DNA of 51,090 nucleotides from Thermoleophilaceae bacterium (GCA_050998555.1 JBPCQB010000110.1:1-51090); one strand, 5' to 3'. Counted from the first letter of the stretch, positions 1,631 through 50,405 are shown. Program-made: numbers and translations. The notes: a model not told the origin generated them from the sequence alone.

Positions 1631-3193
1631 TCATCGAGCAGACCGGGCGCCGACCGCCCGGCCCGCCACGCGACGACCGGTACGCATCGCTCGGCGGCCA
1701 CGACGGGTGTGCCGCCGCATCACCTTCCCAGCCGCGGAGCGCGTTTCCGGTGAGCTGAGCCACAACGCCGTCGCGGGGAGCCAGAGCGCCGCGCGCAGGG
1801 CGAGGGACCGAAGGACGACCCACGGACCGGGCGCCGGCGCCGGCTTCGTCGCCTCGATGGCGTCGGCCATCACCGCGCTGGCCGCGACCTCCTCCCCGTG
1901 CGGTCGCACGAAGGAGCGCAGGAAGCGCTCGCGCATGGCGGCCGTGTGCTCGGGGGCGTGAAGGGCGTCGCCGAGCTGGGCCACGTGCTCCTCGAGGCCC
2001 TCGGCGCTGATCAGGAAGCCGCCGTGGTCGGGCAGGAGGTAGCGGAAGTGCAGGGTGGCGGCCTGGGTCTCGGCGAAGTCCTCGGGCTGGACGGTGAGCA
2101 CGGGCCGGCCCACGATCGCAGCCTCGATCATCACGGTGGTGTTGATGGCCACGACGGCGGCACTGTGGTGCAGCGAGTCGAAGAGATCACTCCTCGTCTC
2201 CGAGGTGGTCGAGGAGCGCTGTCCGCTCGGCCACAGGGCCACGTTGTCGAAGGCCGGTGGCCCGAGCTCGCGCCAGCCCGCGGCGTTGACCGTGGGGTGG
2301 GGGCGAATCAGCACCCCCAGCCCGGCCACCCGGGGGTCCGGGCTCGCCCGTAGGGCGGCGATCCAGCGGCTCACGAACGCGTGCTCCTCGGCCGCCCGCA
2401 CGATGTTGTGCGCCGAGCCCGCCCAGAGCACGAGCTCTCGCTCCGGGTCGAGGCCGAGGCGCGCGCAGAACTCGTCCCGGGGCACGCTCGGGGCGCGACC
2501 GAACCAGCGATCGAAGGGGTGCGCGCCGGTGACTCGGATGCGCTCGGAAGGGACGAGGTGCAGCTCCCGCGCCTCCGCCGCCTGGGTCTCGTTCCAAACG
2601 AGCACGCGGTCGGGGTGGGCGCGGATCAGACCCTTGGTGGTCAGGTGGTCCCAGCTCGCCACCGCGAGCACCGACGGGATGCCGAGGGCGCGGGCGCTCT
2701 TGACGACATCGGTCTGGTCGGGGCGGGTCACGAGCGGCGTGAGCATCACGACGTCCGGCCTGTGCGCGGCGATGAGCTCCTCGACCTCGCCCGAGCTCGG
2801 GATCGCCCTCTCCAGCGCTAGCCCCACGCCCAGCAGCCCCCGGCTGGCCCGGGGACCGAGCCCCTCGACCGCGCGCAGCACCCGCAGCGGGCGCGGCAGG
2901 TGGTCGATGCGCTCGCGCAGGTACCCGGCCTCGAGGCGGCGGTCGAGGTAACGGGCGTAGTCGCGGGTCTCGCGGAGCAGGGTGGCGATCGGCGCCCAGC
3001 GGTCGTGGCGCTTGAGCCGCGCCCGCACCGTCGGCACCCGATCGGCCACGGGCGCGAGCTCGGAGGCGAGGCGCCCGTCAGCGCGATGGTGGTGCACAAG
3101 GGTCACGCGGTGGCCGCGCTCGGCGAGCTCGCGCACCGCGCTGTCGAAGAGCCGCATGAGGCTCGGCGACTGCATGTTGAACAGGATGTGCAA
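1631..3193 (-). CDS. Uncharacterised GT-B-like glycosyl/sugar-phosphate transferase, paralog 1 of 3 (SWDHLTTKG and RPHP motifs)
   Basis: C-terminal 520 aa of ORF 1631..4000. Probable TTG start at 3193 gives MHILFNMQSP..RELAERGHRVTLV, colinear with MRILFVLKG..VERGHRVHV of the 32242..34008 paralog. Shared blocks are PDVVMLTPLV, ASWDHLTTKGLI, WNETQ, VLIRPHPT and HSAAVVAINTTVMIEAAIVGRPV. The start lies 14 nt after the upstream stop. Confidence 0.7.
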   Translation of the reverse strand: MHILFNMQSPSLMRLFDSAVRELAERGHRVTLVHHHRADGRLASELAPVADRVPTVRARLKRHDRWAPIATLLRETRDYARYLDRRLEAGYLRERIDHLPRPLRVLRAVEGLGPRASRGLLGVGLALERAIPSSGEVEELIAAHRPDVVMLTPLVTRPDQTDVVKSARALGIPSVLAVASWDHLTTKGLIRAHPDRVLVWNETQAAEARELHLVPSERIRVTGAHPFDRWFGRAPSVPRDEFCARLGLDPERELVLWAGSAHNIVRAAEEHAFVSRWIAALRASPDPRVAGLGVLIRPHPTVNAAGWRELGPPAFDNVALWPSGQRSSTTSETRSDLFDSLHHSAAVVAINTTVMIEAAIVGRPVLTVQPEDFAETQAATLHFRYLLPDHGGFLISAEGLEEHVAQLGDALHAPEHTAAMRERFLRSFVRPHGEEVAASAVMADAIEATKPAPAPGPWVVLRSLALRAALWLPATALWLSSPETRSAAGKVMRRHTRRGRRAMRTGRRVAGRAVGARSAR

Positions 3194-3207
3194 GGGGCGC
3201 CGCGAGG

Positions 3208-24243: not shown

Positions 24244-26238
24244 ATGGCCCAGAATCGAGACACCGGCATCGCCCTGGCCGCCCGCGTGCGTGTCCGGGCC
24301 GCCCGTATGGCGATCGATCGCCGGCGCGCGCTGGCCCTGGCGCGCGTCTCCCGGCGCCTCGCCCGCCGCGCGAAGCGGCTGCAGGACCGGCTGAAGCCCG
24401 CCGCGGGCGGCGCGGCCCGCCTGCCGCGCGAGCGCAAGCGCTTCGCCAAGGGCCCCTACACCGCCTGGGAGCACGTGCTCGACCGGGTGGGCAACGCCGA
24501 GGCGCTGCGCCTGCTGCTCGGCGCCGGGCTGTTCGGGCGCACCCTCCCCGCGCAGGCCGCGGTCCCCGACGGGGACCGGATACTCGTGCTCGTCCCCCAC
24601 CAGGACGACGAGGGCATCGGCGCGGCCGGCACCCTGCTGCTGAGCGCACGGGCCGGCAAGGCGGTGCGGATCGTCTACTACACCGACGGCGCCACCGGGT
24701 TCGGGGACCTCGGCCCGGAGGAGGTGGCCTGTGTCCGAACCGGCGAGGCGCGGCGGGCGTGGCGGCGGGTGCCCGGCGTGGTCCTCGACTTCCTCGGCCA
24801 CCCGGCCGGAAACCCGGGGCTCGCGCCGGAGGCGGTCGGCCAGCTCGCCGCGATCGTCGTCGAGTTCGATCCGGACACGGTGTTCGTGCCTACGTTCCTC
24901 GAAGAGCACTTCGAGCACCGGCTGCTCAACCGCTGGCTGCTCGAGCTCGACGCCGAGCGTCCGCTCGGCCCCGGCGTCGAGGTGTGGGGCTACCAGGTGA
25001 CCACGCGCGCGCCGGGCAACGCCGTGGTGGACGTGACCGAGGTACGGCGGCGCAAGCGCCGGCTGAACCGGGCCTGGCGGAGCCAGAACGCCTCTGTCGA
25101 CTACGCCCATCTGGCCATGGGTCAGGACATCGCCAACGGCTACTACCTGAAGGGCGGCGGAGCGCTGAAGTCCACCCGGCCGCACGCCGAGGTCTTCCAG
25201 CGCTTCGCCGCCCCGAAGTATCTGTCGCTCTGCGAGCGGTTCCTGGCCCTCGAGGAGTCCTTTGCGGCGACGGCGAGACCGCCCGACTTCCTGGTCGTCG
25301 GGCTCCAGAAGTCCGGCACGTACTGGCTGACGGCCCTGCTCGACGCCCACCCCCAGATCCGCTGCTTTCCCTCCCGGCCCGGGCACGCCGACGGCACGGG
25401 GGAGGCGCACTTCTTCGACGTGCTCGCCCGCATGGAGGACGACTTCCCCGCGTTCCACAGGAGCATGTCGCGAAAGCTCGATCGGTGGTTCGGCGACCTC
25501 TTGCCGGCCACCGAGCCCCGCGGAGAGGAGGAGCGAGCGGCGCTCCGGGAGCGGCTGCGCGACCGCTTCGCCGAGTACTGCGAGGACCAGCGCCGGCGCT
25601 CGGGCAAGCCGATCGTCGGCGAGAAGACCACCGAGACCGTCCACCACCTGGGCGCGGTCGAGTCCCTGTTCCCGGGCGTGAAGAAGGTGTGCATCCTGCG
25701 CGACCCCCGCGATCGCGTGGTCTCCTTCCACCACCAGGAGGTTCGCAAGGGCCGGCGGGAGGAGCGGCCGCTCGGCGCCGTCGACGTCGACGCCTACGCG
25801 GAGCGCGTCCGTCTCGACTACGAGGGCGTGCTCGGACTCGAGGATCCCTATCTCGTGCTCACCTACGAGGAGCTGGCCGGCGATCCGGTGCCCACGGTCT
25901 CGCGGCTGCTCGACTTCCTCGGGGCCTACTCGTCGTCCGACACCGCGCTCGAGCTCATCGAGCGCGCGAGCTTCGCGCGGCTGTCCGGCCGGGAGCCCGG
26001 CGCCGAGGACGCCGCCAGCCACCTCCGCAAGGGAGTGGTCGGCGACTGGACCACGGCGCTCGAGCCCGAGCTCGCGCGGCGCCTGACCGAGGCCGTCGAG
26101 GAGCCCACCCGGCGGGTCGAGGAGCGCCTCGGCATCGATCTCTCCGCGTACCGCACGGTCGGCGAGCCGCAGGCCCTCCGGGACGGGGGTCGCGCTCGGC
26201 CGCCGGTCCGCGCGCGTGCGGGTGCGCCCCACCGATGA
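24244..26238 (+). CDS. Bifunctional fusion: PIG-L/LmbE-family N-deacetylase plus PAPS-type sulfotransferase
   Basis: N-terminal Arg-rich helix, then ILVLVPHQDDEGIGAAGTLL (PIG-L PHxDDE motif, ~24570-25200). From ~25280 come FLVVGLQKSGTYWLTALL (PSB loop) and ILRDPRDRVVSFHHQ (3'-PB). Single ORF. Stop overlaps the next ATG. Confidence 0.8.
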   Translation: MAQNRDTGIALAARVRVRAARMAIDRRRALALARVSRRLARRAKRLQDRLKPAAGGAARLPRERKRFAKGPYTAWEHVLDRVGNAEALRLLLGAGLFGRTLPAQAAVPDGDRILVLVPHQDDEGIGAAGTLLLSARAGKAVRIVYYTDGATGFGDLGPEEVACVRTGEARRAWRRVPGVVLDFLGHPAGNPGLAPEAVGQLAAIVVEFDPDTVFVPTFLEEHFEHRLLNRWLLELDAERPLGPGVEVWGYQVTTRAPGNAVVDVTEVRRRKRRLNRAWRSQNASVDYAHLAMGQDIANGYYLKGGGALKSTRPHAEVFQRFAAPKYLSLCERFLALEESFAATARPPDFLVVGLQKSGTYWLTALLDAHPQIRCFPSRPGHADGTGEAHFFDVLARMEDDFPAFHRSMSRKLDRWFGDLLPATEPRGEEERAALRERLRDRFAEYCEDQRRRSGKPIVGEKTTETVHHLGAVESLFPGVKKVCILRDPRDRVVSFHHQEVRKGRREERPLGAVDVDAYAERVRLDYEGVLGLEDPYLVLTYEELAGDPVPTVSRLLDFLGAYSSSDTALELIERASFARLSGREPGAEDAASHLRKGVVGDWTTALEPELARRLTEAVEEPTRRVEERLGIDLSAYRTVGEPQALRDGGRARPPVRARAGAPHR

Positions 26239-27251
26239 GCCGGGCGGCCGCCCCGGCGATCCGCTCGAGGGTCGTGGAAGCGTTGGGCGGCCCGCGCCGC
26301 CCCCGCTCGTGCCCGGTATGCGGCTCGAAGACGCTGCTGACGCTGCTGCGCTACCGCGGAAAGGCCAAGCGCCTGCCCTACGCCGAGCGCCTCGCGCTCG
26401 TGGGATGCCAGTCCTGCGGCGTGGCGTTCTCCCATCCGCTTCCCTCGGAGCGCCAGCTCGCGGACTTCTACTCGTCGAGCTACTGGGGCGAGCAGAAGCT
26501 CTCCGGCTCGAGCGTCGAGAAGGCCGCGCGCCGCCACGCACGCAAGGTGGAGGCCGGGGCGCACAAGCTCGACCTGCTGAGCCCCTGGCTCGACCCGGGG
26601 GCGGAGCGAGGCCCGGGCGGCGAGGGCGAGGGTGCCGCCCGAAAGGCGCTCGACTTCGGCGCCGGCACCGGCGAGATCCTCGACGCCCTGACGGACCGCG
26701 GCTGGAGCACGTACGGGCTCGAGCCGAGCGACCTGGCGCGCGAGGACCTGGCCCGGCGCCACGCGGTGGTGGAGGCGGTGCCGCGAAAGGAGACCTTCGA
26801 CCTCGTCACGCTGCAGCACGTCCTCGAGCACCTGCGCGACCCGCTTGGGGTCGTGCGTAGCCTCGCCGACGCCCTGGTCCCCGGTGGTCACCTCTACGTC
26901 GCGGTGCCCGACCTCGGAGGGCTCGCCGAGCACCGCGACCTCCCCTACGTGGTGGAGAACGGAGCCCATCTCTTCTCGTTCACCCGGGCCGGACTGTCGT
27001 CGGTCCTCTCGCTGGCCGGCCTCGAGGTCGTGGCCCACCTCGACGGCCCGGAATGGGACGGCCACGTCCGGCGAAAGGGCCGGCGGCTGCGGTGCCTGGC
27101 CCGCAAGAGCGGCCGGGTCGCGCCGCTCCCCGCGAACGCGCTGGAAGAGGCCGAGGAGGCCGTGCGGGCCTACGCCGCCGCCGAGCGGGCGCAGGAGCGG
27201 GCCACCCCAGAGGCGGACGGCATCGGGACGCCGGCGGGGAGGGCCCTATGA
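26235..27251 (+). CDS. Class I SAM-dependent methyltransferase with N-terminal zinc ribbon, paralog 2 of 3
   Basis: ATG at 26235 (ATGA overlap) inside ORF 24063..27251. CPVCGSK...CQSCGVAFSHPLPSERQLADFY, LDFGAGTGEIL, DLVTLQHVLEHLRDPLGVVRSLADALVPGGHLYVAVP. Confidence 0.8.
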   Translation: MSRAAAPAIRSRVVEALGGPRRPRSCPVCGSKTLLTLLRYRGKAKRLPYAERLALVGCQSCGVAFSHPLPSERQLADFYSSSYWGEQKLSGSSVEKAARRHARKVEAGAHKLDLLSPWLDPGAERGPGGEGEGAARKALDFGAGTGEILDALTDRGWSTYGLEPSDLAREDLARRHAVVEAVPRKETFDLVTLQHVLEHLRDPLGVVRSLADALVPGGHLYVAVPDLGGLAEHRDLPYVVENGAHLFSFTRAGLSSVLSLAGLEVVAHLDGPEWDGHVRRKGRRLRCLARKSGRVAPLPANALEEAEEAVRAYAAAERAQERATPEADGIGTPAGRAL

Positions 27252-28438
27252 CCCTCGTGAGGGTCACGGGCGCTCCGGTGCTCGCGCACATGCGGGCGGC
27301 CTTCCCTGAGGGCGCGGACTGGGTCGAGCTCTCGAGCTGCCCGGTGTGCGGGCGCTCCGACGCGGTACGAGACGTCGGGCTCGTCGAGGGCGCGGACCAC
27401 GTCGAGCCCGGCGCGCCGGAGGCCCACGCCCTCGGTCCGGTGATGAGCGTGTGCCTGGACTGCGAGCACGGCTTCATCCGGCGGCGCCCGCGCCGGGCCT
27501 GGTTCGACGACTACTACGCCCGCGACTGGGACCGCGGCGGTCAGGAGGCCTTCGGCCGCAAGCGGGTGCGGGCGGACTTCAAGGTGGCCGACTTCGCGGG
27601 CTCGTCCCTCGAGCCGGGCTCTGCGGTGCTCGACGTGGGCGCCGGCTTCGGCAAGCAGGTGCTCGGCTTCCTCGAACGGGGGCACCGCCCGAGAGGCCTC
27701 GAGCGCTCCGAGCACCGCGCGCGGTTCGTGCGTGACGTCCTCGGCGTGCCGTGTGACTCGCGACCGCTCGAGGCCTTCGAGACCACCGAGTCGCTCGACC
27801 TCGTGTACCTCAACCACGTCCTCGAGCACGTCGACGACGCGGCCGAGGCGCTCGGCCGCGCCCGCGAGCTCCTCGCCGAGAGCGGGCTCCTCTACGTGGC
27901 CGTGCCGAACCTCTGGGCCGAGCACCCGCCGCAGACCTTCCATTTCGTCCCTCACCTCTCGGCCTTCACGCTCCGCTCACTCGAGCGGCTGCTCCGCGGC
28001 GCCGGGTTCGCCGTGGTGCGGGCGCAGGAGGGCAACGAGCTCCAGGTCCTGGCCCGGAAGGTGGCCGCGCCCGACGAGCACGCGCTCGACCGCTCCCCGC
28101 CTTCGGCCCGGGAGCGCTTCTGGTCGCGGATCGGCGACTGGGTGGGGCGGGCGTTCCCGAGCGACCCGGCTCCGCGTGTGCTCATCTGGGGCCCCTCGGA
28201 GCGCGAGAAGCACACCTACGACGCGCGGTCGGTGGCCTCGGGGCGCCTCCGGTACCTCCTCATGAGGGCCGTCCACCGCTCCCGGGAATCGATGGCCGGC
28301 CGGCTGCTCGACGAGCGGGTGCCGAGCTACCTGACGAGCGACCGCCTGCGCATGCTGCCTGTGCGGGCCTCGGACGGCGCGGGGCTGCCGGTGCGGGTGG
28401 TGCATCCGAGCGCCGAGGCCCCGGTCTGGGTCAAGTAG
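27248..28438 (+). CDS. Class I SAM-dependent methyltransferase with N-terminal zinc ribbon, divergent paralog 3 of 3
   Basis: ATG at 27248 (ATGA overlap). CPVCGRS...CLDCEHGFI, VLDVGAGFGKQVL, DLVYLNHVLEHVDDAAEALGRARELLAESGLLYVAVP. Has a ~100-aa extra C-terminal region. Confidence 0.75.
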   Translation: MTLVRVTGAPVLAHMRAAFPEGADWVELSSCPVCGRSDAVRDVGLVEGADHVEPGAPEAHALGPVMSVCLDCEHGFIRRRPRRAWFDDYYARDWDRGGQEAFGRKRVRADFKVADFAGSSLEPGSAVLDVGAGFGKQVLGFLERGHRPRGLERSEHRARFVRDVLGVPCDSRPLEAFETTESLDLVYLNHVLEHVDDAAEALGRARELLAESGLLYVAVPNLWAEHPPQTFHFVPHLSAFTLRSLERLLRGAGFAVVRAQEGNELQVLARKVAAPDEHALDRSPPSARERFWSRIGDWVGRAFPSDPAPRVLIWGPSEREKHTYDARSVASGRLRYLLMRAVHRSRESMAGRLLDERVPSYLTSDRLRMLPVRASDGAGLPVRVVHPSAEAPVWVK

Positions 28439-28461
28439 CGAGGGCTATCGTCCCCGCGGTC

Positions 28462-29502
28462 ATGGTCCCCGAAGCGCCCTACATCGAGGTCGGCGGACGC
28501 CTGCTCGGGGCGGGACATCCCGCGCTCGTGATCGCGGAGGTCGGCAACAACCACGACGGATCGATCGGCCAGGCCCGCGCCCTGATCGACGCCGCCGCCG
28601 AGGCGGGAGCCGGCGCGGTCAAGCTCCAGACCCACATCGCGGACGCCGAGATGCTCCCCTCGACGCCCACGCCCCCGCACTTCGACGAGCCCCGCTTCGA
28701 GTTCACGAAGCGGATGGAGCTCTCCGAGGACGCCCACCGCGAGCTGCGGGCGCGGGCCGAGGAGCGCGGCATGGTGTTCTTCTCCTCGCCGTTCTCGGTC
28801 GAGGCCGTGGCCCTGCTCGAGCGCCTCGAGGTGCCGATGTACAAGATCGCCTCGGGCGAGGTGACGAACCCGCCGCTGGTCGAGGCCATCGCCGAGACCG
28901 GCCGGCCCGTCCTCATCTCCACCGGAATGTCGGGGATGGAGGACGTCGAGCGCGCGGTGGCCATCCTTCGCAAGCATCACACGCCGTTCTGCGTGCTGCA
29001 GTGCACGTCCACCTACCCGTGCCCGCCCGAGGAGGTCAACCTCCGCGCGATGCGCACGCTCGGCGAGCGCTTCGCCTGTCCGGTCGGGCTGTCCGACCAC
29101 ACGCCGGACATTCACACCTCCATCGCGGCCGTCGCCCTCGGCGCCGTGTGCGTCGAGAAGCACTTCACGCTCGCAAAGCGCCTCTACGGGCCCGACCACC
29201 ACGCCTCGCTCGTGCCCGAGGAGCTCGCGCGGCTGGTGGACGGGGTGCGTCAGGTGGAGGCCGCGCTCGGGTCCGAGGAGAAGCACCGCGACCCGCGGCT
29301 GGACCCGGCGCGGGCGACCTTCGAGAAGAGCGTGGTGACCACGGTGGAGGTTCCCGAAGGCGCCGTCATCGAACGCTCCATGCTCACCACGAAGCGCCCC
29401 GGCAACGGCATCGCCGCCGCCCGCATCGACTCCGTGATCGGCCGGCGCAGCGCACGCGCGCTGGCGCCGAACCACCTCGTCGAGGAGCCCGACCTTGCCT
29501 GA
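28462..29502 (+). CDS. neuB: N-acetylneuraminate (nonulosonate) synthase
   Basis: HPALVIAEVGNNHDGSIGQARALIDAAAEAGAGAVKLQTH, MYKIASGEVTN, PVGLSDHT, plus a C-terminal SAF-like domain (VVTTVEVPEGAVIERSMLTTKRPG). Confidence 0.9.
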   Translation: MVPEAPYIEVGGRLLGAGHPALVIAEVGNNHDGSIGQARALIDAAAEAGAGAVKLQTHIADAEMLPSTPTPPHFDEPRFEFTKRMELSEDAHRELRARAEERGMVFFSSPFSVEAVALLERLEVPMYKIASGEVTNPPLVEAIAETGRPVLISTGMSGMEDVERAVAILRKHHTPFCVLQCTSTYPCPPEEVNLRAMRTLGERFACPVGLSDHTPDIHTSIAAVALGAVCVEKHFTLAKRLYGPDHHASLVPEELARLVDGVRQVEAALGSEEKHRDPRLDPARATFEKSVVTTVEVPEGAVIERSMLTTKRPGNGIAAARIDSVIGRRSARALAPNHLVEEPDLA

Positions 29503-30745
29503 CGCGGCGCCGCCGACGGTCGGCGACGCGGGCGCCAGCCGGGGTGCGCCCCGGAAGATCTGCGTGGTGGTGGCGAGCCGCGCGAACTACGCGCGGATCA
29601 AGACCCTCCTGCAGGCGGTGCGCGACCATCCGGATCTCGAGCTGCAGCTCATCGTCGCGGCCTCGGCCCTGCTCGAGCGCTTCGGCACCTCCGTGGACGT
29701 GATGGAGCGTGACGGGTTCACGCCCGACGCCACCATCCGCCTGATCATCGAGGGGGAGAACCCGACCACCATGGCCAAGTCCACGGGCCTCGGGCTCCTC
29801 GAGCTGCCCACGGTCTTCGAGATGCTCGACCCCGACGTCGTGGTCACGGTGGCCGACCGCTTCGAGACGCTCAGCACCGCGATCGCCGCCGCCTACATGA
29901 ACCTGCCCGTCGCCCACATCCAGGGCGGCGAGGTGTCGGGCTCGATCTACGAGTCGGTCCGCCACGCGGTCACCAAGCTCTCGCACCTGCACTTCCCGGC
30001 CACCGAGCTCTCCGCCCAGCGAGTGCTGGCGATGGGGGAGGACCCGGCCATGGTGTTCAACACCGGCTGCCCCTCGATCGACCTGGTGGCCGGGACCGAT
30101 CTCGGCACGCGCGCCGTGGCGCTCGAGCAGTTCGGCGGGACCGGCTCGCCCATCGATCCGGACAAGCCCTACGCGCTGATGATGCAGCACCCCGTGACCA
30201 CCGAGTTCGGCCAGGGCTTCGAGCAGATCAACGAGACGCTCGACGCGGTGGCCTCCCTCGGGATGCAGGCGCTCGTGTTCTGGCCCAACGTCGACGCCGG
30301 CTCCGAGCAGGTGGCCAAGGGCATCCGCCAGTTCCGCGAGAAGGGGCGCGACCACGGCTTTCACTTCTTCCGCAACCTCCCGGCCGAGGACTTCTTCCGG
30401 CTGATGGCCCACTGCGAGGTGATGGTGGGCAACTCCTCCGCCGGCCTGCGCGAGGGCGCCTACCTGGGCACCCCCGTCGTCACCGTCGGCTCACGCCAGC
30501 GAGGGCGCGAGTGCGGGGACAACGTGCGGTGGGTGGAGCACGACGCGGCCGCCATCGCCGAGGCGATCAGCGACCAGATCGCTCACGGCCGCTACGAGCG
30601 CGACGAGCTGTTCGGGGACGGCACCGCCGGCCAGAAGATCGCCGAGGTGCTGACCTGGGCGCGGCCGAGCGTCCAGAAGGAGCTGCATCTCGCCTCCGAG
30701 CTGAGCGACCCGCGGGCCGTCGGGGCGTCGGTGCCGTTGGCGTAG
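29495..30745 (+). CDS. neuC: UDP-N-acetylglucosamine 2-epimerase (hydrolysing)
   Basis: KICVVVASRANYARIKTLLQAV, VVTVADRFETL, VAHIQGGEVSGSIYESVRHAVTKLSHLHF, GNSSAGLREGAYLGTPVV. TTG is the only upstream start and overlaps neuB by 8 nt. Confidence 0.9.
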   Translation: MPDAAPPTVGDAGASRGAPRKICVVVASRANYARIKTLLQAVRDHPDLELQLIVAASALLERFGTSVDVMERDGFTPDATIRLIIEGENPTTMAKSTGLGLLELPTVFEMLDPDVVVTVADRFETLSTAIAAAYMNLPVAHIQGGEVSGSIYESVRHAVTKLSHLHFPATELSAQRVLAMGEDPAMVFNTGCPSIDLVAGTDLGTRAVALEQFGGTGSPIDPDKPYALMMQHPVTTEFGQGFEQINETLDAVASLGMQALVFWPNVDAGSEQVAKGIRQFREKGRDHGFHFFRNLPAEDFFRLMAHCEVMVGNSSAGLREGAYLGTPVVTVGSRQRGRECGDNVRWVEHDAAAIAEAISDQIAHGRYERDELFGDGTAGQKIAEVLTWARPSVQKELHLASELSDPRAVGASVPLA

Positions 30746-30818
30746 GGGGGCCTGCGGGGGATCGTGCGGCCGGGTCTGACCCGCCGCGAGCTGGGATGGC
30801 GCTTCGCGCACGGAGAGT

Positions 30819-31199
30819 TCAGCGAAGATGCTTTTCGATCGACGCGGCGTCTGCCACCTCGAGCTCGCCGCGAGCCACCGCCAGCACGAGAACCTCGGCC
30901 TCATCGACCGCGAGCTGAAGGTCGCGGCCGTTGAGGAGGCAGAACACCCGGGTCGCAGCCCAAGCCAACCGCTTGTTGCCGTCTACCAACGGGTGGTTGC
31001 GGGCGAGGGAATGCATGAGCGCCGCGGCCTTGTCCGCGAACCGGGGATAGGCGTCTTCACCGAAGACGGTGGTCTGGGGCCGCCCCGCGGCGGAGGCGAG
31101 CAGACCTCGATCGCGCACCGCGACCTCCCCGAGGACGCCGTCGGCGATCTCGAGAAGGTCGGCGACGCTCAGGTACTCGATCCGCCGATCCTCGAGCAT
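30819..31199 (-). CDS. doc: Doc (death-on-curing) Fic-family toxin
   Basis: HPLVDGNKRLAWAA matches the Doc variant of the Fic motif HxFx(D/E)GNKR. The ATG directly follows the antitoxin stop. Confidence 0.85.
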   Translation of the reverse strand: MLEDRRIEYLSVADLLEIADGVLGEVAVRDRGLLASAAGRPQTTVFGEDAYPRFADKAAALMHSLARNHPLVDGNKRLAWAATRVFCLLNGRDLQLAVDEAEVLVLAVARGELEVADAASIEKHLR

Positions 31200-31397: not shown

Positions 31398-31405
31398 GCC
31401 GTTAA

Positions 31406-32241: not shown

Positions 32242-34008
32242 TCAGGCCGCACCGGGCAGGCGGTCGGGAGCCTCCACCGGGGCCGACGCCGGGCCGTCGG
32301 GCGCCGCTCCGTTGGGCCCCGCTCCGTCGTCCGCGGGCGCGGTCCGGTGCCCCTGGGCGAGAGCTCGCTCGGCGGCCCCTCCCTCCCCAGCGCCCGGCGC
32401 CTTTCTCGCTCCGCGCTCCCCAAGCAGCGAGCCGAGCTCCGCCCACCGGCGGCGCGCGACCATTCCCGCGAGCCTAGCCCCCGATCGCCTCCACGCCGTG
32501 CGCCGCGCCCGAGCGCGCTTGCGCCTGATTCTCCACCGCTTGGCGTCCTCCTCCCGCCAGTAGGCGAGCTCGGCCAGCGGCCGGAGCACCAGCCGCGCGA
32601 GGGGCTCCGCCCCGGCGCGCCGCGGCGGGCGCAGGCGCGGGTCGGCGGCCACCGCCTCCACGGCGTCGGCCAGCCGCAGCGCGGCCGAGACCTCGATGCC
32701 TCCCGGCCGCACGAAGTCCTCGATGAACCGCCGTCCCGGCTCGGGGTCCTGCTCCCCGCGCAGGAGCACGGAGAGCTGGCCGACGTGCTGCTCGAGCGTC
32801 TCGGCCGTCTGCAGCAGCCCGCCGCTGACCTCGGTGAGGTAGTGGAAGTGCACGGTCTCGTTCTGGGAGTCGCTGAACTCCGGCGGCAGCAGCGAGTAGG
32901 AGGGCCGCCCGATCACCCCGGCGTCGATGAAGGCGCTCGTGTTCAGTCCCACGACGGCGGCGGAGTGCCAGACGGAGTCGAACAGGGTGGTCCGCCAGTC
33001 CACCCCCACCGGACTGGTGCCCGGCTCCGGCCAGATCGCCACCTCCTCCTGGTCGGGCAGGTCGAAGTCTCCGCGGCGCACCGGGCGCTTGGGATGGGGA
33101 CGGATGAGGACCCCGGCCTCGCGCACCGCCGCGTCGCCGTGCCGGCGCAGCTCGCGGACCCAGCGCTCGACGAACGGGACCTCGTCGCCGGAGATCAGCG
33201 CCGAGCCCAGGTAGAGGAGGTAGGGGCGGTCCGGCCGCAGGCCCACCCGGGCGCAGAACCCCTCGCGGGTCGTGCTCGGCCTCCAGTCGAACCAGTGGTC
33301 GAACGCCGCCGCTCCCACGGCTACCACCCGATCCTCGGGCACGCCGTGGAGGTCGACCGCCTCCCGGCGCTGGATCTCGTTCCAGACCGTCACGTTGTCG
33401 GGCTCGCCGCGGATGAGCCCCTTCGTGGTCAGGTGGTCCCAGGAGTAGGCGCTGTAGACGTTCGGGATGCCCAGGCGCTTGGCGGCGCGCAGGTGGTCGG
33501 CCTGCGGGGTCCCGAAGCGCACGAGCGGCGAGACCACCATCACGTCGGGCGCCTGCTCGGTGAGGAAGGCCTCGATCTCGGGGCTGGGCGGGACGGCGCG
33601 CTCCATCCACGCGAGCACGCCGCGCACCAGCCGGACCCCGGGCGCGGTGGCGAAGAGCCGCAGCGCCATCGTGCGGCGCACGGTGGCGGGAGCGAGCGTT
33701 CCCGCCCGCACCCACAGGCTGGGCGACGTGCGGTAGCGGGGGTGGTAGAAGCGCATGTAGTCGAGGCCGAGGCGAAGCTGGCCGGCGAGCGCGCGCCAGC
33801 GGTCGTCGGCGCGCCGGGCGGCCCACCCGCTCGTGAGCCCGGGCAGCTCGGCCTCGAGGCGCTCGATCAGCTCCCACTGGTGCGGCTGCTTGTTCGACTC
33901 GACCTCGAAGGCCACGTGCACCCGGTGCCCGCGCTCGACCAGGTGGCGCAGCGTGTACTCGAGGTTGCGCGCGTAGAGCGGGCCCTTGAGGACGAAGAGG
34001 ATCCGCAT
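32242..34008 (-). CDS. Uncharacterised GT-B-like transferase, paralog 2 of 3
   Basis: ATG at 34008 within ORF 32242..35847, overlapping the upstream stop by 1 nt (TGATG). MRILFVLKGPLYARNLEYTLRHLVERGHRVHV, PDVMVVSPLV, YSWDHLTTKGLI, WNEIQ, VLIRPHPK, HSAAVVGLNTSAFIDAGVIGRP. Confidence 0.75.
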   Translation of the reverse strand: MRILFVLKGPLYARNLEYTLRHLVERGHRVHVAFEVESNKQPHQWELIERLEAELPGLTSGWAARRADDRWRALAGQLRLGLDYMRFYHPRYRTSPSLWVRAGTLAPATVRRTMALRLFATAPGVRLVRGVLAWMERAVPPSPEIEAFLTEQAPDVMVVSPLVRFGTPQADHLRAAKRLGIPNVYSAYSWDHLTTKGLIRGEPDNVTVWNEIQRREAVDLHGVPEDRVVAVGAAAFDHWFDWRPSTTREGFCARVGLRPDRPYLLYLGSALISGDEVPFVERWVRELRRHGDAAVREAGVLIRPHPKRPVRRGDFDLPDQEEVAIWPEPGTSPVGVDWRTTLFDSVWHSAAVVGLNTSAFIDAGVIGRPSYSLLPPEFSDSQNETVHFHYLTEVSGGLLQTAETLEQHVGQLSVLLRGEQDPEPGRRFIEDFVRPGGIEVSAALRLADAVEAVAADPRLRPPRRAGAEPLARLVLRPLAELAYWREEDAKRWRIRRKRARARRTAWRRSGARLAGMVARRRWAELGSLLGERGARKAPGAGEGGAAERALAQGHRTAPADDGAGPNGAAPDGPASAPVEAPDRLPGAA

Positions 34009-35741
34009 CACTCGCCGCTGCGGGCCACGGGATCGCCCAGCTCCCGGGACGCGGGCTCGGGCAGGCCGCTGGCCGCGCCGTTCTCGCCGGGGGCCTCGAC
34101 GTCCATGGGGACGGCGACGAGGTCGGGCGTCCGCCCTCCTCGGTGCTCCCACCGGTGGCGCAGGCCGACCCAGACCACGTAGGCGTTGTGCACCGGGCGC
34201 AGGGCCAGCAGCAGCGCGGCGGGGAACACCGCCGCCCGGAGCACCGCGGTGGACGCTCCCGCGCGGCGGGGGGCCGGGGGCGGCTGCGCACACGCCTGCT
34301 CGACCGTCGCGACCAGGGCCGGGGTGGCGGCCCGGTCGAGACCGCGGGGGCGGACGAACGCCTTCACGAAGCTGCGCAGGCGCTCCCCGTAGTCGGCGCG
34401 CCCGGAAAGCACCGCGTCGAGCTGTCCCGCGTGCTCGTCGAGGCTCGAGGCCTCGGTGAGCAGGCCGGCGCCCTCGTCGGTCAGGTGGTGGAAGTGCAGC
34501 GTGCCCGACTGGGTGTCGCGGAACTCCGGCGCGAGCACCGTGAAGGCCGGTCGCCCGACGATCGCGCTCTCGATCAGCGCGCTCGTGTTCACGCCCACCA
34601 CGGCGACGCAGTGGAACATCGAGTCGAAGAAGTCGGCCTTCGCCTGCCGGGACAGGGGATCGGCGCCGGTGCGGGGCCAGACAGCCACGCCGCCGGCCCG
34701 GTCGAGGTCGGCGTCGCGCCACTGCTCGACGTTCTTCGGGTGCGGCCGGATCAGCACGCCCACCTCCCGCAGGCGCGGCGACTCGCTGGTGCGCAGGTGC
34801 GCCAGCCACTCCCGCACGAAGTCCACCTCGCGCGGGGCGATGAAGTAGGAGGAGCACAGGTACAGGAGGAAGGGACGGCCCTCGCTCAGGCCGACCTCGC
34901 GGCGGAACTCGTCCCCGTCGCGGCTGGGGGACCAGTCGAACCAGTGGTCGTAGCCGGGGGCGCCCGTCACCACCACCCCCTCCCGCGGCACCCCGTGCAG
35001 GTCGACGGCCTCGTCGCGCTGGGCCTCGTTCCACACGGTCACGAAGTCGGGCGCGTCGCGGATCAGGCCCTTGTTGGTCAGGTTGTCCCACGAGTGCACG
35101 CACAGCCCGGTGCGCACCCCGAGGCCCTTGGCGCAACGCAGGTAGGCCCCCTGCGGCGAGGCGATGTCCACGAGGGGCGTGACGAGCACGATGTCGGGGT
35201 CGCGCTCCCGCAGGAACCTGTTCACCGCCGCGCGCGTGGGCAACGAGCGCTCTACCCAGGACAGCGAGCGTCGCAGCCCACGCAGGCCGGTAGGAGTGCG
35301 CACGAGCGGTAGCCGGGCCAGGCGGCCGAGCCCGCCGCCGGCCTTCTTCTCGGCGCGGCGGCGAAGCTTCGGGGCGTCGCGGTAGCGAGGGTCGAGGTAG
35401 CGCAGGTAGTCGATCGCGCGGCCCACCTCCGCCTCCAGCCGGAACCACCCGCTCTCGAGGTTCCACAGGCCCTCCTCCCGCCACGGCACGCGTCCGTAGG
35501 TGATCCGGCCGGGGTACTCGCCCGAGAGGCGCTCGATCAGCTCCGCGCGTATCGGGGCTCCGGGGGGGTCGGTCTGAGAGCGGTCGAAGCCGACGTGCAC
35601 GGAGTGCCCGCGCTCGGCCAGCAGCCGCAGCGTGCTCTCGAAGTTGCGCGTGTAGACCTGGTGGCGCATGAAGAACACCACCCGCAGGGGGCGCTCGGCG
35701 CTCGCACGGAGCCCGTCGGGGTGGGGGCCCGCACCTGCCAT
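34008..35741 (-). CDS. Uncharacterised GT-B-like transferase, paralog 3 of 3
   Basis: ATG at 35741 overlaps the upstream stop by 1 nt. RVVFFMRHQVYTRNFESTLRLLAERGHSVHV, PDIVLVTPLV, HSWDNLTNKGLI, WNEAQ, VLIRPHPK, HCVAVVGVNTSALIESAIVGRP. Confidence 0.75.
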   Translation of the reverse strand: MAGAGPHPDGLRASAERPLRVVFFMRHQVYTRNFESTLRLLAERGHSVHVGFDRSQTDPPGAPIRAELIERLSGEYPGRITYGRVPWREEGLWNLESGWFRLEAEVGRAIDYLRYLDPRYRDAPKLRRRAEKKAGGGLGRLARLPLVRTPTGLRGLRRSLSWVERSLPTRAAVNRFLRERDPDIVLVTPLVDIASPQGAYLRCAKGLGVRTGLCVHSWDNLTNKGLIRDAPDFVTVWNEAQRDEAVDLHGVPREGVVVTGAPGYDHWFDWSPSRDGDEFRREVGLSEGRPFLLYLCSSYFIAPREVDFVREWLAHLRTSESPRLREVGVLIRPHPKNVEQWRDADLDRAGGVAVWPRTGADPLSRQAKADFFDSMFHCVAVVGVNTSALIESAIVGRPAFTVLAPEFRDTQSGTLHFHHLTDEGAGLLTEASSLDEHAGQLDAVLSGRADYGERLRSFVKAFVRPRGLDRAATPALVATVEQACAQPPPAPRRAGASTAVLRAAVFPAALLLALRPVHNAYVVWVGLRHRWEHRGGRTPDLVAVPMDVEAPGENGAASGLPEPASRELGDPVARSGE

Positions 35742-36940
35742 CAGGTGCGTACGGCCGTGGCCTCGTGGTAGAGCGGCGTGGCCCGCTCGTCGATGTAGGA
35801 GATCTCCTCGGGGGAGAGGAGCTCGCGGAACCGGGACAGGGGCTCACGGCTCACGCCGTGGCCCGTCACCCGGAAGGAGGAGTCCGCCTTGATGGGCATG
35901 CCGTTGAAGCTGGGGGTCAGGAGGCTGGGATGGAAGCTGATGTCGAGGTACTCGGCGAGGGAGCGCATGACCGTCTCGGTGTCGCTCACGAGGTCCTCGA
36001 AGGTCAACAACCGAAAGCGGTCTCCGTAGCCCTCCCGGGCGGCGAGCATCGCCCGCGAGGAGTCGATCCACAGCCCGACGGCCGTCGCCATGTCGCCGTA
36101 GTCGCGGGTACGTCCGGGTGAGGGGTTGACCTCCAGGTACCGGCGGGCGGAGAGGAACCAGGAGCGCGGGTCGCGGACGATGGAGATGAGCCGCCCGTCG
36201 GGGTAGGTGTCGAAGAACGTCCGCACGCTGTCCTCGTGCGCGTTCAGCCGGGCCGCGAAGGCCGAGACCCAGCGCTTGGGCGGTCCGTAGAGGTTGTGGT
36301 TGTCGAGCCACGCGTTGAAGTAGGAGGTCATGTAGCAGTCGAAGATCCCGCGCGGCGTGGTCGGTCGCCAGGCGGCCGCGCAGTGCTCGAAGATCGCCTT
36401 CTGCACGAGCGGGGGGAAGACGAACGGGAAGGTCTCCTCGCCGCTCTCGCGCACCTTCAGGTCCACCACCTTCGAGTAGCCCTCGGCGAAGCCCCGGGCG
36501 GTGGGTCGCTCGTAGAGCAGCCGGAACCACTCGTCGGGCCCAGTGGCCGGGTCGAGGGGCGGCCAGTCGTACTTCTTGGGGTATCCGGTGCGGAGCTCCT
36601 GCGGGTGGGCGTGGATCTCCGGGTGGCCGTCGAGCAGCTGCGAGAGGAGGGTGCCCCCGGAGCGCTGGATCTGCGAGACGAGCACGAGCGGCTGGCGGAT
36701 CTCGACCAGGTGGTCGGTGCGCTGGGCCACGATGCGCTCGTGCTCGCGGCGGCGCTCGGCGCCCGGCCCGCGACGCAGGCGGGGCCGGCCGTCCCCGACG
36801 GTGATCACGCGGCTCAGGCGCTCGCGCGCGACGGCCGCCAGGGCGCGCGGAAGCCGCCCGCGGACGGGTGTGTGCGGCGAGCCGGCGCGACCCTCCGAGG
36901 GTGTCGCCGCGGCGCCGTTTCGAGAGCTCGGGATCGGCAT
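35741..36940 (-). CDS. Sulfotransferase-family protein (Sulfotransfer_3-like)
   Basis: ATG at 36940 within ORF 35741..37390. LVLVSQIQRSGGTLLSQLL (P-loop-like PSB) and LISIVRDPRSWFLSARRY (3'-PB). A ~90-aa Arg-rich N-terminal extension means the true start may be further downstream. Confidence 0.75.
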   Translation of the reverse strand: MPIPSSRNGAAATPSEGRAGSPHTPVRGRLPRALAAVARERLSRVITVGDGRPRLRRGPGAERRREHERIVAQRTDHLVEIRQPLVLVSQIQRSGGTLLSQLLDGHPEIHAHPQELRTGYPKKYDWPPLDPATGPDEWFRLLYERPTARGFAEGYSKVVDLKVRESGEETFPFVFPPLVQKAIFEHCAAAWRPTTPRGIFDCYMTSYFNAWLDNHNLYGPPKRWVSAFAARLNAHEDSVRTFFDTYPDGRLISIVRDPRSWFLSARRYLEVNPSPGRTRDYGDMATAVGLWIDSSRAMLAAREGYGDRFRLLTFEDLVSDTETVMRSLAEYLDISFHPSLLTPSFNGMPIKADSSFRVTGHGVSREPLSRFRELLSPEEISYIDERATPLYHEATAVRT

Positions 36941-37039
36941 CAGCTGGGCTGCTCGGGGGCGCGGATCGGCTTTAGGGTAGTCGTGCCCCCCTGGCCCCTC
37001 AGGCGCCCGCGCCCGCCCTCGGCGTGCCAGTGTGGGACC

Positions 37040-38155
37040 GTGCGCGTGGGTTACGAGCTCACCGGCCTCGAGCTCGACGCGGCGGGCACGCGGCGCACCG
37101 TCGGCCGGCTCCGGCACGAGCTCGAGCCCGGTCCCGTCGATCTCGTGCCCCTCTCCCATCCGCGCCGGCCGCGGACACGCGGGCTCGGGAGCGTCGCGCG
37201 CGGCCTCTCGCGTGAGCTGGCCTACCTCCCGGTCGGGCTGCCCCGGCGGGCGGCGCGCCTGCGCCTCGACCTGCTGCACTGCCCCACGGCACTCGCGCCG
37301 GTGCGCTCTGCGATGCCATTGGTGGTGACCGTGCACGACGTGATGGCCCTCGAGCACCCGGGCTGGTTCACGCGCGCGAACGTCCTGCAACAGCGGCTGG
37401 TGCTGGGCGCCGCGGCGCGCGGCGCGGCGATGGTGATCTGCCCGTCGGCCTTCACCCGCGACCGCGTGGTGGAGCGGCTCCGGGTCGAGCGCTCCCGCAC
37501 GCGGGTGGTGCCCTGGGGAGTGGACGAGTCCTTCTCCCCCGGCCCGCGGGACGACGCCGCGCTCGAGCGCCTGGGCGTGACCGGGCGCTACCTGCTCACC
37601 GTGGGGACCCTCCAGCCCCGCAAGAACCTCGAGGCCGCGCTCGCGGCCTTCGAGCGGCTCCCCGCGGGCGACGGCGTCGAGCTGGTGGTGGCGGGCTCGC
37701 GCGGCTGGAGGGACGAGGCGCTCGTGGCCCGGATCGCCACCTCGCCCGCGGCCGGGCGGATCAGGCTCCCCGGCCGGGTCTCCGAGCCCGATCTCGTGGC
37801 CCTCTACCGCGGGGCGGAGTGCTTCGTCTATCCGTCGCGCTTCGAGGGCTTCGGGCTGCCCCCGCTCGAGGCCATGGCCTGCGGCACCCCGGTGGTGGCC
37901 GCGGACCGCACCAGCGTGCCCGAGGTGGTGGGGGACGCCGGCGTCCTGGTGGACCCCGACGACGGCGCCGCCCTGGCGGCCGCGTTGGCGCGGCTCCTGA
38001 GCTCAGGCTCCGCACGCGCCGAGGCCTCCGCGCGGGGGCGCGAGCGCGCGGCGCGCTTCACCTGGGCCCGGTGCGCGGAGGGCACGCTCGCCACCTACGC
38101 GGACGCCCTGGCGCGGGAGAGGCGGCGGAGCAGGAGGAGCACGAGCCGCCAGTAG
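37040..38155 (+). CDS. GT4-family (GT-B, retaining) glycosyltransferase
   Basis: GTG at 37040 within ORF 36236..38155. LLTVGTLQPRKNL, FVYPSRFEGFGLPPLEAMACGTPVVAADRTSVPEVVGDAGVLVDP (EX7E region). Confidence 0.85.
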   Translation: MRVGYELTGLELDAAGTRRTVGRLRHELEPGPVDLVPLSHPRRPRTRGLGSVARGLSRELAYLPVGLPRRAARLRLDLLHCPTALAPVRSAMPLVVTVHDVMALEHPGWFTRANVLQQRLVLGAAARGAAMVICPSAFTRDRVVERLRVERSRTRVVPWGVDESFSPGPRDDAALERLGVTGRYLLTVGTLQPRKNLEAALAAFERLPAGDGVELVVAGSRGWRDEALVARIATSPAAGRIRLPGRVSEPDLVALYRGAECFVYPSRFEGFGLPPLEAMACGTPVVAADRTSVPEVVGDAGVLVDPDDGAALAAALARLLSSGSARAEASARGRERAARFTWARCAEGTLATYADALARERRRSRRSTSRQ

Positions 38156-50400: not shown

Positions 50401-50405
50401 CTTGC

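Follow-up and report, generated by a model that had tools for sequence, protein, structure and literature searches.

In the animal N-deacetylase/N-sulfotransferases NDST1-4, a deacetylase is followed in one polypeptide chain by a C-terminal sulfotransferase that uses 3'-phosphoadenosine 5'-phosphosulfate (PAPS). The same order of domains is met in a gene of a Thermoleophilaceae bacterium (GCA_050998555.1 JBPCQB010000110.1:1-51090; this whole stretch of 51,090 nt is hereafter termed the window), where a deacetylase of the PIG-L/LmbE type is fused to a PAPS-type sulfotransferase (ST). Known families are combined in this real, conserved and uncharacterised fusion into a new domain architecture, and no better candidate is at present available for a microbial counterpart of the animal enzyme with which heparan sulfate (HS) modification begins. 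It is tentatively regarded, at slightly less than an even chance, as a soluble cytoplasmic bifunctional glycan-tailoring enzyme that would deacetylate an amino sugar and then sulfate the same sugar, most economically on nitrogen.

The initial annotation had likened this protein to NDST while considering it built from unrelated domains. That description stands for the deacetylase half, since NDST1 has for its deacetylase a (beta/alpha)7 barrel of the CE4-like type, together with an N-terminal domain that resembles Agd3 (PMC10864358), a fold unrelated to the Rossmann-like LmbE/CE14 fold of the bacterial protein. It does not stand for the sulfotransferase halves, which are homologous, both belonging to PF00685, and NDST1 (8chs) was recovered with the bacterial domain by Foldseek, albeit poorly (rank 40, TM-score 0.27 over a 642-column alignment). 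A review statement that "11 GAG sulfotransferases ... within PF00685" (GAG, glycosaminoglycan) is consistent with the placement of NDST in this family. NDST is a type II membrane protein, whereas the fusion has neither a hydrophobic segment nor a membrane anchor, and the motif of the NDST N-sulfotransferase (NST) domain that corresponds to E-A-H-F-F-D of the fusion is E-I-Q-F-F-N. NDST acts on heparosan, whereas the fusion is surrounded by genes for nonulosonate and a methylated glycan; no heparosan synthase was recognised among the window genes in general profile searches, in which KfiA/KfiC models were not run. N-sulfation in the NDST pathway is followed by O-sulfation, and the glycan island around the fusion likewise contains other sulfotransferases. 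The fold pair of NDST itself, CE4 with a related ST, is met in bacteria of the candidate phyla radiation (CPR) and in archaea, but as separate genes. The analogy with NDST is thus strengthened, not proven, and the fusion is not a member of the NDST family.

For the deacetylase half, the closest described systems are the LmbE/CE14 enzymes (MshB, BshB, PIG-L, Dac and teicoplanin Orf2*/Dbv21), with which it shares the fold and the H-x-D-D...H metal pattern. The logic of these pathways, in which GlcNAc is added and then deacetylated, is known from PIG-A/PIG-L, MshA/MshB and PgaC/PgaB, and is mirrored by relatives in which PIG-L is fused to a GT2 glycosyltransferase. The subfamily of the fusion differs from these enzymes by an extension of ~45 residues, a PxEH motif and a sulfotransferase that is fused or adjacent; no sulfotransferase domain appeared among the top PDB matches of the deacetylase half, and no characterised LmbE/PIG-L member is known to carry such a domain. 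In the Candidatus (Ca.) Kuenenia cluster with a deacetylase and a formyltransferase and in the Campylobacter ptm genes, tailoring genes stand among neuB, neuC and neuA-type genes, as here, and de-N-acetylated nonulosonates have been documented in Ca. Kuenenia at the level of the CMP-sugar. Sulfated sialic acids occur in animals, where the vertebrate sialate O-sulfotransferases, WSCD1/2, differ from the fusion in architecture.

Relatives were collected by a search of 5.8 billion proteins clustered at 90% identity, and 63 loci of relatives (cited below by L numbers) were fetched and searched with the window proteins and with hidden Markov models (HMMs) of each half. The co-occurrence of PIG-L and Sulfotransfer domains, which the initial annotation proposed to look up, was found in at least 50 clusters, all with PF02585, PF13469 and PF00685, of 532-709 aa and 42-97% identical to the window protein. 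The fused architecture spans at least six phyla, and its hosts among species-representative genomes are Thermoleophilaceae, Hyphomicrobiales, Phycisphaerales, Azospirillaceae, Vicinamibacterales and other Acidobacteria metagenome-assembled genomes (MAGs). The family is not singular; it comprises Thermoleophilia-like, Acidobacteriota, Planctomycetota and Alpha-/Gammaproteobacteria MAGs and one isolate with the full fusion, Thiohalobacter sp. IOR34 (CP128988.1), and the closest named homologue comes from a Thermoleophilaceae MAG (62% identity). At 50% identity the full-length fusion forms about five clusters, and stand-alone relatives of each half are far more numerous. Two tandem full-length paralogues are encoded in L020, L021/23 and also L017. 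Beside fused genes in L020-24 and L030 there are also ST-only paralogues, 54-59% identical, in which P-A-R-(L/F)-F-H replaces the catalytic E-x-H-x-F-D and the PAPS-binding motifs are kept; they are probably inactive or repurposed sulfotransferase-like proteins.

That both domains are encoded by one open reading frame (ORF), as initially annotated, was borne out by the coding signal, the Pfam matches and the three peptides originally quoted, VLVPHQDDEGIGAAGTLL (aa 115-132), VVGLQKSGTYWL (aa 351-362) and ILRDPRDRVVSFHH (aa 484-497), all of which were located in the protein. The GC content at third codon positions (GC3) of this frame is 0.94 overall and 0.88-1.00 in 120-nt windows from ~24274 to ~26160, the whole window being 73% GC throughout. 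At the domain junction (~25200-25280), where a sequencing error had been feared, there is no switch of frame and the GC3 signal is continuous. The split versions known in other lineages (L058, L043, L006) might suggest that a lost stop codon or a frameshift had joined two adjacent genes here, but such a sequencing or assembly artefact is hardly credible and was ruled out by the unbroken coding signal over the junction, by the presence of the same 664-aa protein cluster in three independent sources (NCBI, ENA and Logan assemblies) and by the fused clusters of many phyla, whose linker is conserved. No description of such a fusion was found in a literature search for PIG-L or LmbE with sulfotransferase, and fused homologues are named in databases only as "sulfotransferase" or "LmbE family N-acetylglucosaminyl deacetylase", in agreement with the initial view that the enzyme is undescribed.

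The N-terminal half matches PIG-L (PF02585) over aa 114-232 (E 1.5e-15, 58.3 bits against a cutoff of 28.2). In an AlphaFold2 model of the fusion computed with 51 sequences (mean predicted local distance difference test score, pLDDT, 85), aa 110-335 are modelled as an LmbE Rossmann-like fold with pLDDT mostly 80-95, for which the best Foldseek match was the Pyrococcus diacetylchitobiose deacetylase Dac (E 3e-10, TM-score normalised to the target 0.69), followed by BC1534, LnmX, BshB and TT1542; the probability was 1.0 for Dac, BC1534, BshB and TT1542, with target TM-scores of 0.67-0.76. H119, D121, D122 and H225 are invariant in 51 fused-family sequences and in 11 stand-alone relatives, and the roles of the first three are presumed by analogy with MshB/BshB. 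In the classical LmbE motif HxxH, the first His is not conserved by the fused family, most members of which have Pro instead, and the consensus PxEH replaces HPDH. The half belongs to a distinct subfamily whose stand-alone members are ~300 aa long and share with the fusion a conserved segment of ~45 residues before HQDDE (aa ~57-105, including W75, G95 and G98). The match to NCBIfam BshB1 is weak (2e-9, 37.5 bits against a cutoff of 182.5), and both halves fall outside every curated NCBIfam equivalog, all scores being far below cutoff; judged by its sequence, the PIG-L half is nevertheless a bona fide member of its superfamily. An HMM of aa 1-104, covering the N-terminal helix and the conserved segment behind it, matched only fused or split loci that bear PIG-L, together with one marginal match in L056, a 1-kb fragment. 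In a Kyte-Doolittle scan over 19 residues, no transmembrane segment was found in the fusion protein; the maximum of 1.36 lies outside the N-terminal helix, which is not a membrane span, and this fits the use of cytoplasmic PAPS.

The C-terminal half is matched by Sulfotransfer_1 (PF00685; aa 346-620, E 7.5e-25, 88.2 bits against a cutoff of 22) and Sulfotransfer_3 (PF13469; aa 349-560, E 3.4e-22, 80.2 bits against 27), and by these profiles it is a bona fide member of the Sulfotransfer_1 superfamily. It lies nearest to the cytosolic SULTs in a PDB sequence search (SOT16/18 and SULT1A1, 4e-10), and Foldseek returned TPST2 as the best match, together with plant SOT16/18, 3rnl and the olefin-synthase ST. 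K356, R486 and S494 align with the corresponding motifs of SOT16 and TPST2 and, as a lead only, of HS3ST1. Among the 51 sequences, G459, E460, K461, T462 and E464 are invariant and H467/H468 nearly so, as are R595, G597, G600 and W602 of RKGxxGDW; in HS sulfotransferases the GEKTTE strand has a likeness in the EKT/EKS strand, and in cytosolic SULTs in the KTH strand.

The catalytic base is His in SULTs and Glu in NST, 3-OST and TPST, and the fusion ST shares with this Glu-base branch the 5'-phosphosulfate-binding (PSB) loop, the EKT strand and ILRDPxxRxxS; as in HS 3-OST, its E-x-H-F-F-D follows the PSB lysine by about 31 residues. BLASTP against human HS3ST1, which is a lead only, gave E 1e-8 at ~21% overall identity, with GTGE-A-H-FF-D aligned to ENE-V-H-FF-D (Glu90/His92/Asp95) and ILRDPRDRVVS to ILRDPSERVLS. 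E387 is aligned in this comparison with Glu90, and E460, E464, H467 and H468 are likewise conserved in the fused family. The fusion ST differs from HS 3-OST by its SULT-type RKGxxGDW and by an insert of ~12 residues, FPSRPGHADGTG, between LDAHPxIRC and the putative catalytic Glu. PDB matches to 3-OSTs were weak (E 0.01-0.3), that to 3-OST-3A spanning the EAHFFD region; with fragments around E-x-H-F-F-D, one of 69 aa gave a weak 3-OST-3A match (E 0.05) and one of 57 aa gave no relevant match in the PDB.

Beyond the fusion itself, this ST subfamily is repeatedly paired with a deacetylase, which is either PIG-L (fused, split or fused to GT2) or the unrelated CE4. Two adjacent genes 17 bp apart encode the halves separately in L058, among TagF-like genes, methyltransferases and NeuB, and a split pair of PIG-L and ST is also found in L043. 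In the cultured Desulfatibacillum aliphaticivorans (L061, AUCT01000001.1), a gene for a GT2-PIG-L fusion of this PIG-L subfamily (P0096) overlaps the ST gene, which is followed in order by a 2-hydroxyacid dehydrogenase, NeuA, a methyltransferase, NeuB and NeuC. The same cluster encodes a fusion of GT2 with CTP_transf_3, that is, of a glycosyltransferase with a CMP-sugar synthetase (2479-3840). GT2-ST and GT2-PIG-L architectures were also found elsewhere. A CE4 Polysacc_deac_1 gene lies 0-51 bp from the ST gene in six different loci of CPR, archaeal or unclassified origin (L010, L011/32, L013/57, L033, L049 and L051); in a seventh (L012/41) the distance is 1141 bp with NeuB in between, and in L063 a CE4 gene stands in the same cluster about 4.7 kb away. 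No natural CE4-ST fusion occurred among 35 group-B ST relatives, all of ~300 aa, and the subfamily HMM detected no PIG-L of this subfamily in ST-only loci. That the deacetylase and ST pair is kept while the non-homologous deacetylase family is swapped argues that the two steps are coupled, and this displacement of PIG-L by CE4 is the strongest argument available. STs without a deacetylase nearby form a separate group (group C), with QRSG instead of QKSG and the signature (E/D)-V-(H/D)-F-F-N instead of E-(A/G)-H-x-F-D, and are usually followed by a pyruvate-kinase/ATP-sulfurylase(/APS-kinase) fusion (APS, adenosine 5'-phosphosulfate).

A link of this ST subfamily to genes of nonulosonic (sialic-type) acids is reported here for the first time and extends across bacteria, CPR bacteria and archaea. 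Stand-alone relatives of the ST half (32-40% identical), whose named hosts include Parcubacteria, Patescibacteria and Woesearchaeota, adjoin homologues of NeuA, NeuB or NeuC in almost every locus with enough flank. Among the loci with a deacetylase, NeuA, a 64-73% identical homologue of the NeuA-like protein of the window, stands beside fused genes in L020-23 and L031, a fused gene directly precedes NeuB-NeuC in L029, and NeuABC lie near the split or alternative arrangements of L058, L060 and L061. ATP sulfurylase, APS kinase and a CysQ-like Inositol_P protein recur in related clusters, providing PAPS and removing 3'-phosphoadenosine 5'-phosphate, which shows sulfation to be an integral part of the pathway. 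The module of deacetylase, ST, NeuABC, methyltransferase, TagF-like transferase and sulfate activation is conserved and had not been described before; no report of a prokaryotic sulfated nonulosonate, or of a sulfotransferase in a neu/leg/pse cluster, was found in the literature searched. In CPR-type loci (L037 10368-12638, L042, L052, L062 and L063), pyruvate-kinase (PK) barrel fusions adjoin an ST-methyltransferase pair. They combine the PK barrel with PUA_2 and ATP sulfurylase, to which APS kinase is added in L063 (8932-11718), or, in L062, PK with APS kinase, and so join a glycolytic domain to sulfate activation inside nonulosonate clusters that require phosphoenolpyruvate.

According to the mechanism proposed, the N-terminal half would act as an LmbE/PIG-L-type metal-dependent amidase that removes the N-acetyl group from an amino sugar, either an N-acetylhexosamine (HexNAc) placed by the neighbouring GT2 enzyme or a nonulosonic acid supplied by NeuC/NeuB; the GT2-PIG-L fusions tilt the choice by analogy towards a HexNAc just added by GT2. 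The C-terminal half would next act on the same sugar with PAPS, and the most economical chemistry would be sulfation of the newly freed amine to a sulfamate, as in the two-step logic of animal NDST. The product would enter a surface glycan with nonulosonate, methylated and sulfated more than once, whose cytoplasmic assembly would be the work of the island of ~48 kb. The substrate, the order of the two steps and the choice of N- over O-sulfation are what we infer, and for N-sulfation as such the chance is put at close to, yet still under, even. Counted in its favour are the fusion, the split pairs, the displacement by CE4, the separate signature of the deacetylase-free STs and chemical precedents. 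Free-amine CMP-nonulosonates were found in Ca. Kuenenia with a deacetylase in the corresponding cluster (preprint 10.64898/2026.04.20.719630), and in nonulosonate-rich extracellular polymers of microbial origin a nitrous-acid assay measured more N-linked than O-linked sulfate, the enzymes being unknown (PMC10483923).

Several observations weigh against N-sulfation and bear on a serious alternative, held possible at a chance well short of even, in which the same enzyme and pathway operate and the ST would instead perform O-sulfation, with a hydroxyl group on the nonulosonic acid or on a sugar beside it as the acceptor. Deacetylation would then serve another purpose, namely a free positive amine, re-acylation (formyl, glyceroyl) or N-methylation by the downstream methyltransferases. 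An N-sulfotransferase cannot be told from an O-sulfotransferase by sequence, and the nearest ST relatives by sequence and fold, the cytosolic SULTs and TPST, are all O-sulfotransferases, including the nearest solved ones (SOT16/18, SULT1A1 and TPST2). The motif E-x-H-F-F-D is nearer to that of HS 3-O-sulfotransferase than to that of NST, its E-A-H-F-F-D aligning with HS3ST1, an alignment that is a lead only. The group C relatives do without any detectable deacetylase in NeuABC clusters. L011/32, L015/16 and L025/28 have a formyltransferase adjacent to, or not far from, the deacetylase or the fusion, so that the freed amine may there be re-acylated rather than sulfated, and Ca. Kuenenia, whose cluster has both of these enzymes, produces nonulosonates with a free amine or an N-formyl group. 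The fusion is translationally coupled to two methyltransferases, and the sulfated sialic acids known to occur naturally in animals are 8- and 9-O-sulfated (PMC13634767, PMC9304399). O-sulfation nevertheless leaves unexplained why a deacetylase from two unrelated families stays beside or fused to this ST subgroup; formyltransferases occur in only 3-4 distinct loci, and methyltransferases accompany STs with or without a deacetylase and are therefore not tied to the freed amine. Two further points count against the proposed bifunctional enzyme in its nonulosonate setting: the relative placement of the two active sites is undefined in the AlphaFold2 model because its predicted TM-score is 0.58, and eight distinct fused loci (10 locus identifiers with two duplicate pairs: L002, L004, L007, L014, L015/16, L018, L019 and L025/28) have no NeuABC within 10 kb.

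Two other explanations depart further from the coupled deacetylation and sulfation of a surface glycan, and both are improbable. One of the domains might be a catalytically dead scaffold for substrate binding, with only the sulfotransferase or only the deacetylase at work, as could be suspected from the loss of the first His of the LmbE HxxH, mostly replaced by Pro, and from the ST-only paralogues of L020-24 and L030, in which Glu, His and Asp have gone (GSPPAR(L/F)FH). The fused proteins themselves speak against it, since H119, D121, D122, H225, K356, E387, H389, D392, R486 and S494, all the residues expected for metal binding, PAPS binding and catalysis, are invariant in 51 sequences of 42-97% identity. 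Alternatively, and with a slightly smaller chance still, the substrate might be a small-molecule glycoside (a mycothiol- or bacillithiol-like thiol, an aminoglycoside or a glycolipid head group), the position in the island being incidental. Small GlcNAc glycosides are the substrates of all LmbE/PIG-L enzymes known to have been characterised biochemically (MshB, BshB, PIG-L, Dac and the teicoplanin deacetylases), and enzymes of this kind are the top structural matches, besides the weak BshB1 hit. That hit remains far below its cutoff and the window contains no thiol or aminoglycoside pathway genes, for which reasons a mycothiol/bacillithiol-type role was rejected; moreover, the fusion is translationally coupled to methyltransferases and neuB-neuC, and its neighbours over dozens of loci are glycosyltransferases, NeuABC, ABC/Wzx-type exporters and sulfate-activation genes.

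The coordinates of the fusion, its motifs and its neighbours are compiled in Table 1. The initial reading that the fusion heads an operon continuing into two methyltransferases and neuB-neuC was upheld by start and stop overlaps and by Pfam and TIGR matches. The TGA of the fusion (26236-26238) overlaps the ATG of methyltransferase 1 (MT1) at 26235 (ATGA), and the operon is translationally coupled. MT1 homologues recur beside fused and ST-only genes. NeuB scored 371 bits with TIGR03569 NeuB_NnaB, just below the cutoff of 399.65, and 280 bits with PseI, whereas NeuC exceeded the cutoff of 236 with 380 bits for TIGR03568 NeuC_NnaA; the NeuA-like protein matched TIGR03584 PseF below cutoff (1.8e-28, 99.7 bits). 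A NeuB-type synthase, a NeuC-type epimerase and a NeuA-like cytidylyltransferase are thus all present in the locus. A scan of 23900-31400 for sigma-70 promoters and intrinsic terminators found none, as expected for a genome of 73% GC.

Table 1. Positions of the fusion gene, its domains and motifs, and the neighbouring genes in the window
Feature	Coordinates	Strand	Basis
Fused PIG-L deacetylase/sulfotransferase gene	24244..26238	+	Single ORF, ATG start, 664 aa
N-terminal Arg-rich helix (aa 5-50)	24256..24393	+	AlphaFold2 helix; 17 R/K against 3 D/E in first 55 aa
LmbE/PIG-L (CE14-type) metal-dependent N-deacetylase domain, aa ~105-335	24556..25248	+	Pfam PF02585, Foldseek; activity predicted
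HQDDE motif: H119 and D122 predicted metal ligands, D121 predicted general base	24598..24612	+	Invariance and MshB/BshB analogy
His225, predicted third metal ligand	24916..24918	+	Invariant in fused and stand-alone relatives
PAPS-type sulfotransferase domain, aa ~346-640	25279..26163	+	PF00685, PF13469, PDB sequence and Foldseek matches
5'-Phosphosulfate-binding loop GLQKSGTYWL (K356)	25300..25329	+	K356, G358 invariant; aligns to TPST and SULT PSB loops
EAHFFD, candidate catalytic base E387 with H389, D392	25402..25419	+	E387, H389, F391, D392 invariant in fused family
GEKTTE strand (E460, K461, T462, E464), then H467, H468	25618..25635	+	Invariance
3'-Phosphate-binding motif RDPRDRVVS (R486, S494)	25699..25725	+	Invariant; aligns with RDPKD of SOT16
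RKGVVGDW, C-terminal PAPS-binding motif typical of cytosolic SULTs	26026..26049	+	Aligned to RKGKVGDW of SOT16/18
Methyltransferase 1 (MT1; Zn-ribbon + Methyltransf_23)	26235..27251	+	Pfam 2.1e-24
Methyltransferase 2 (MT2; Methyltransf_23)	27248..28438	+	Start overlaps MT1 stop codon
NeuB-type nonulosonic acid synthase	28462..29502	+	Pfam NeuB 4.6e-84 (282 bits) and SAF
NeuC-type hydrolysing UDP-GlcNAc 2-epimerase	29495..30745	+	Pfam Epimerase_2 1.9e-68; overlaps neuB
GT2_4/GT92-like glycosyltransferase, divergent, 134 bp upstream of fusion	22973..24109	-	Pfam Glyco_tranf_2_4 2.7e-17
NeuA/PseF-like CMP-nonulosonate cytidylyltransferase	17251..18069	+	Pfam CTP_transf_3
Two paralogous TagF-like (PF04464-related) proteins, 32242-33930 and 34008-35741	32242..35741	-	Candidate nonulosonate/CMP-sugar transferases
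Third TagF-like/BFO_1060-family glycosyltransferase	1631..3193	-	NCBIfam NF046086 E 1.9e-14
Additional sulfotransferase (Sulfotransfer_3), ~240-aa N-terminal extension	35741..37390	-	Pfam
GT2_4 (aa 10-105) + Sulfotransfer_1 (aa 402-584) fusion	6600-8639	-	Pfam
Sulfotransfer_1 gene directly after the GT2_4-ST fusion	8636-9595	-	Pfam

The fusion operon lies within a glycan island of ~48 kb that contains three further sulfotransferases and, among its GT2/GT32/GT4 classes, five GT2_4/GT92-like glycosyltransferases (one fused to ST), three DXD, one GT4, two further GT2 and one WecG-type, in addition to a Capsule_synth protein, a third methyltransferase, and sugar dehydratases and dehydrogenases. 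No other genes accompany the fused and split deacetylase/ST genes as constantly as those of the TagF-like family, found in L004, L006 (three copies, tandem), L017, L019, L021, L029 and L058-60. The three paralogues of the window (~500-570 aa) give almost no Pfam signal, and homologues in L032, L058 and L060 match Glyphos_transf. By tblastn the first of them (1631..3193) matched the TagF-like protein of L032 at 5e-21. The protein of 34008-35741 weakly matched BFO_1060, a putative Tannerella nonulosonate transferase (PMC5420450), and gave no meaningful match in a PDB sequence search; the paralogues are candidate CMP-nonulosonate transferases or polymerases. A 58% identical homologue of the additional sulfotransferase at 35741..37390 adjoins the fused paralogues of L017. 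The sulfotransferases of 6600-8639 and 8636-9595 belong to another subfamily than that of the PIG-L fusion. GT2 and ST domains are also joined in proteins elsewhere, including giants of 1238 and 1247 aa, in each of which both domains occur twice.

Other genes of the island are of interest in their own right. A 644-aa protein (21004-22938, minus strand) combines an N-terminal Rieske [2Fe-2S] domain, a metallo-beta-lactamase fold and a C-terminal DUF1858, and the first two together are the architecture of CMP-Neu5Ac hydroxylase (CMAH). Its gene is only two away from the neuB operon, and an N-glycolyl nonulosonate could be its product; the first 57 loci fetched (L001-L057) contained no homologue, and a PDB search returned only generic Rieske matches. 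Prokaryotic CMAH homologues have been reported, including actinobacterial ones (PMC5767959). At 39279-42311 (plus strand), a Capsule_synth gene (KpsS/KpsC-like) is followed at zero gap by a flavin-containing monooxygenase-like gene, unusual in a glycan cluster, whose best NCBIfam match is a Baeyer-Villiger-type pentalenolactone D synthase, far below cutoff, and which might serve to N-oxygenate an amino sugar. The island is interrupted by defence or toxin-antitoxin-like genes, namely ATPase_2+DUF234 (14105-15487, minus strand), a PIN-domain fragment (15548-15841, minus strand) and, immediately after neuC, a Fic/Doc toxin (30819-31199, minus strand), and ends with a resolvase (49084-49662) and a Mutator-family transposase (50004-51089), which suggests a mobile or recombining locus.

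The neighbourhoods described above predict a class of sugars unreported in prokaryotes: nonulosonic acids, or glycans with them, that are sulfated, often methylated and in some cases de-N-acetylated. They would occur in many uncultured lineages, CPR bacteria and Woesearchaeota among them, and would be filtered out in nucleotide-sugar surveys as these are now made; the formula filter of SugarBase excluded compositions with both N and S, so that such sugars would have been missed. Two cultured organisms carry the system, Thiohalobacter sp. IOR34 with the full fusion and Desulfatibacillum aliphaticivorans with GT2-PIG-L followed by ST. Sulfated and sialylated polymers co-occur in environmental biofilms, for which the fusion family offers a concrete candidate gene.

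It is proposed with reserve, and held somewhat less probable than its contrary, that the fused, the split PIG-L and ST, and the CE4 and ST versions constitute the first natural prokaryotic N-deacetylase/N-sulfotransferase, producing N-sulfated amino sugars in nonulosonate-bearing surface glycans. Artificial bacterial NDSTs are being engineered by groups working on microbial heparin (PMC13353177, PMC11069525), which implies that no natural one was known to them, and a soluble, ready-fused prokaryotic deacetylase/N-sulfotransferase would be directly useful for such production. If the proposal is true, residues of the N-sulfoglucosamine type or acids of the N-sulfo-neuraminic type would occur in hosts from Actinomycetota to CPR bacteria and DPANN archaea, the family would supply the enzyme so far missing for the N-linked sulfate that was measured in extracellular polymers of microbes, and the step with which animals begin the modification of heparan sulfate would have been invented a second time by convergence.

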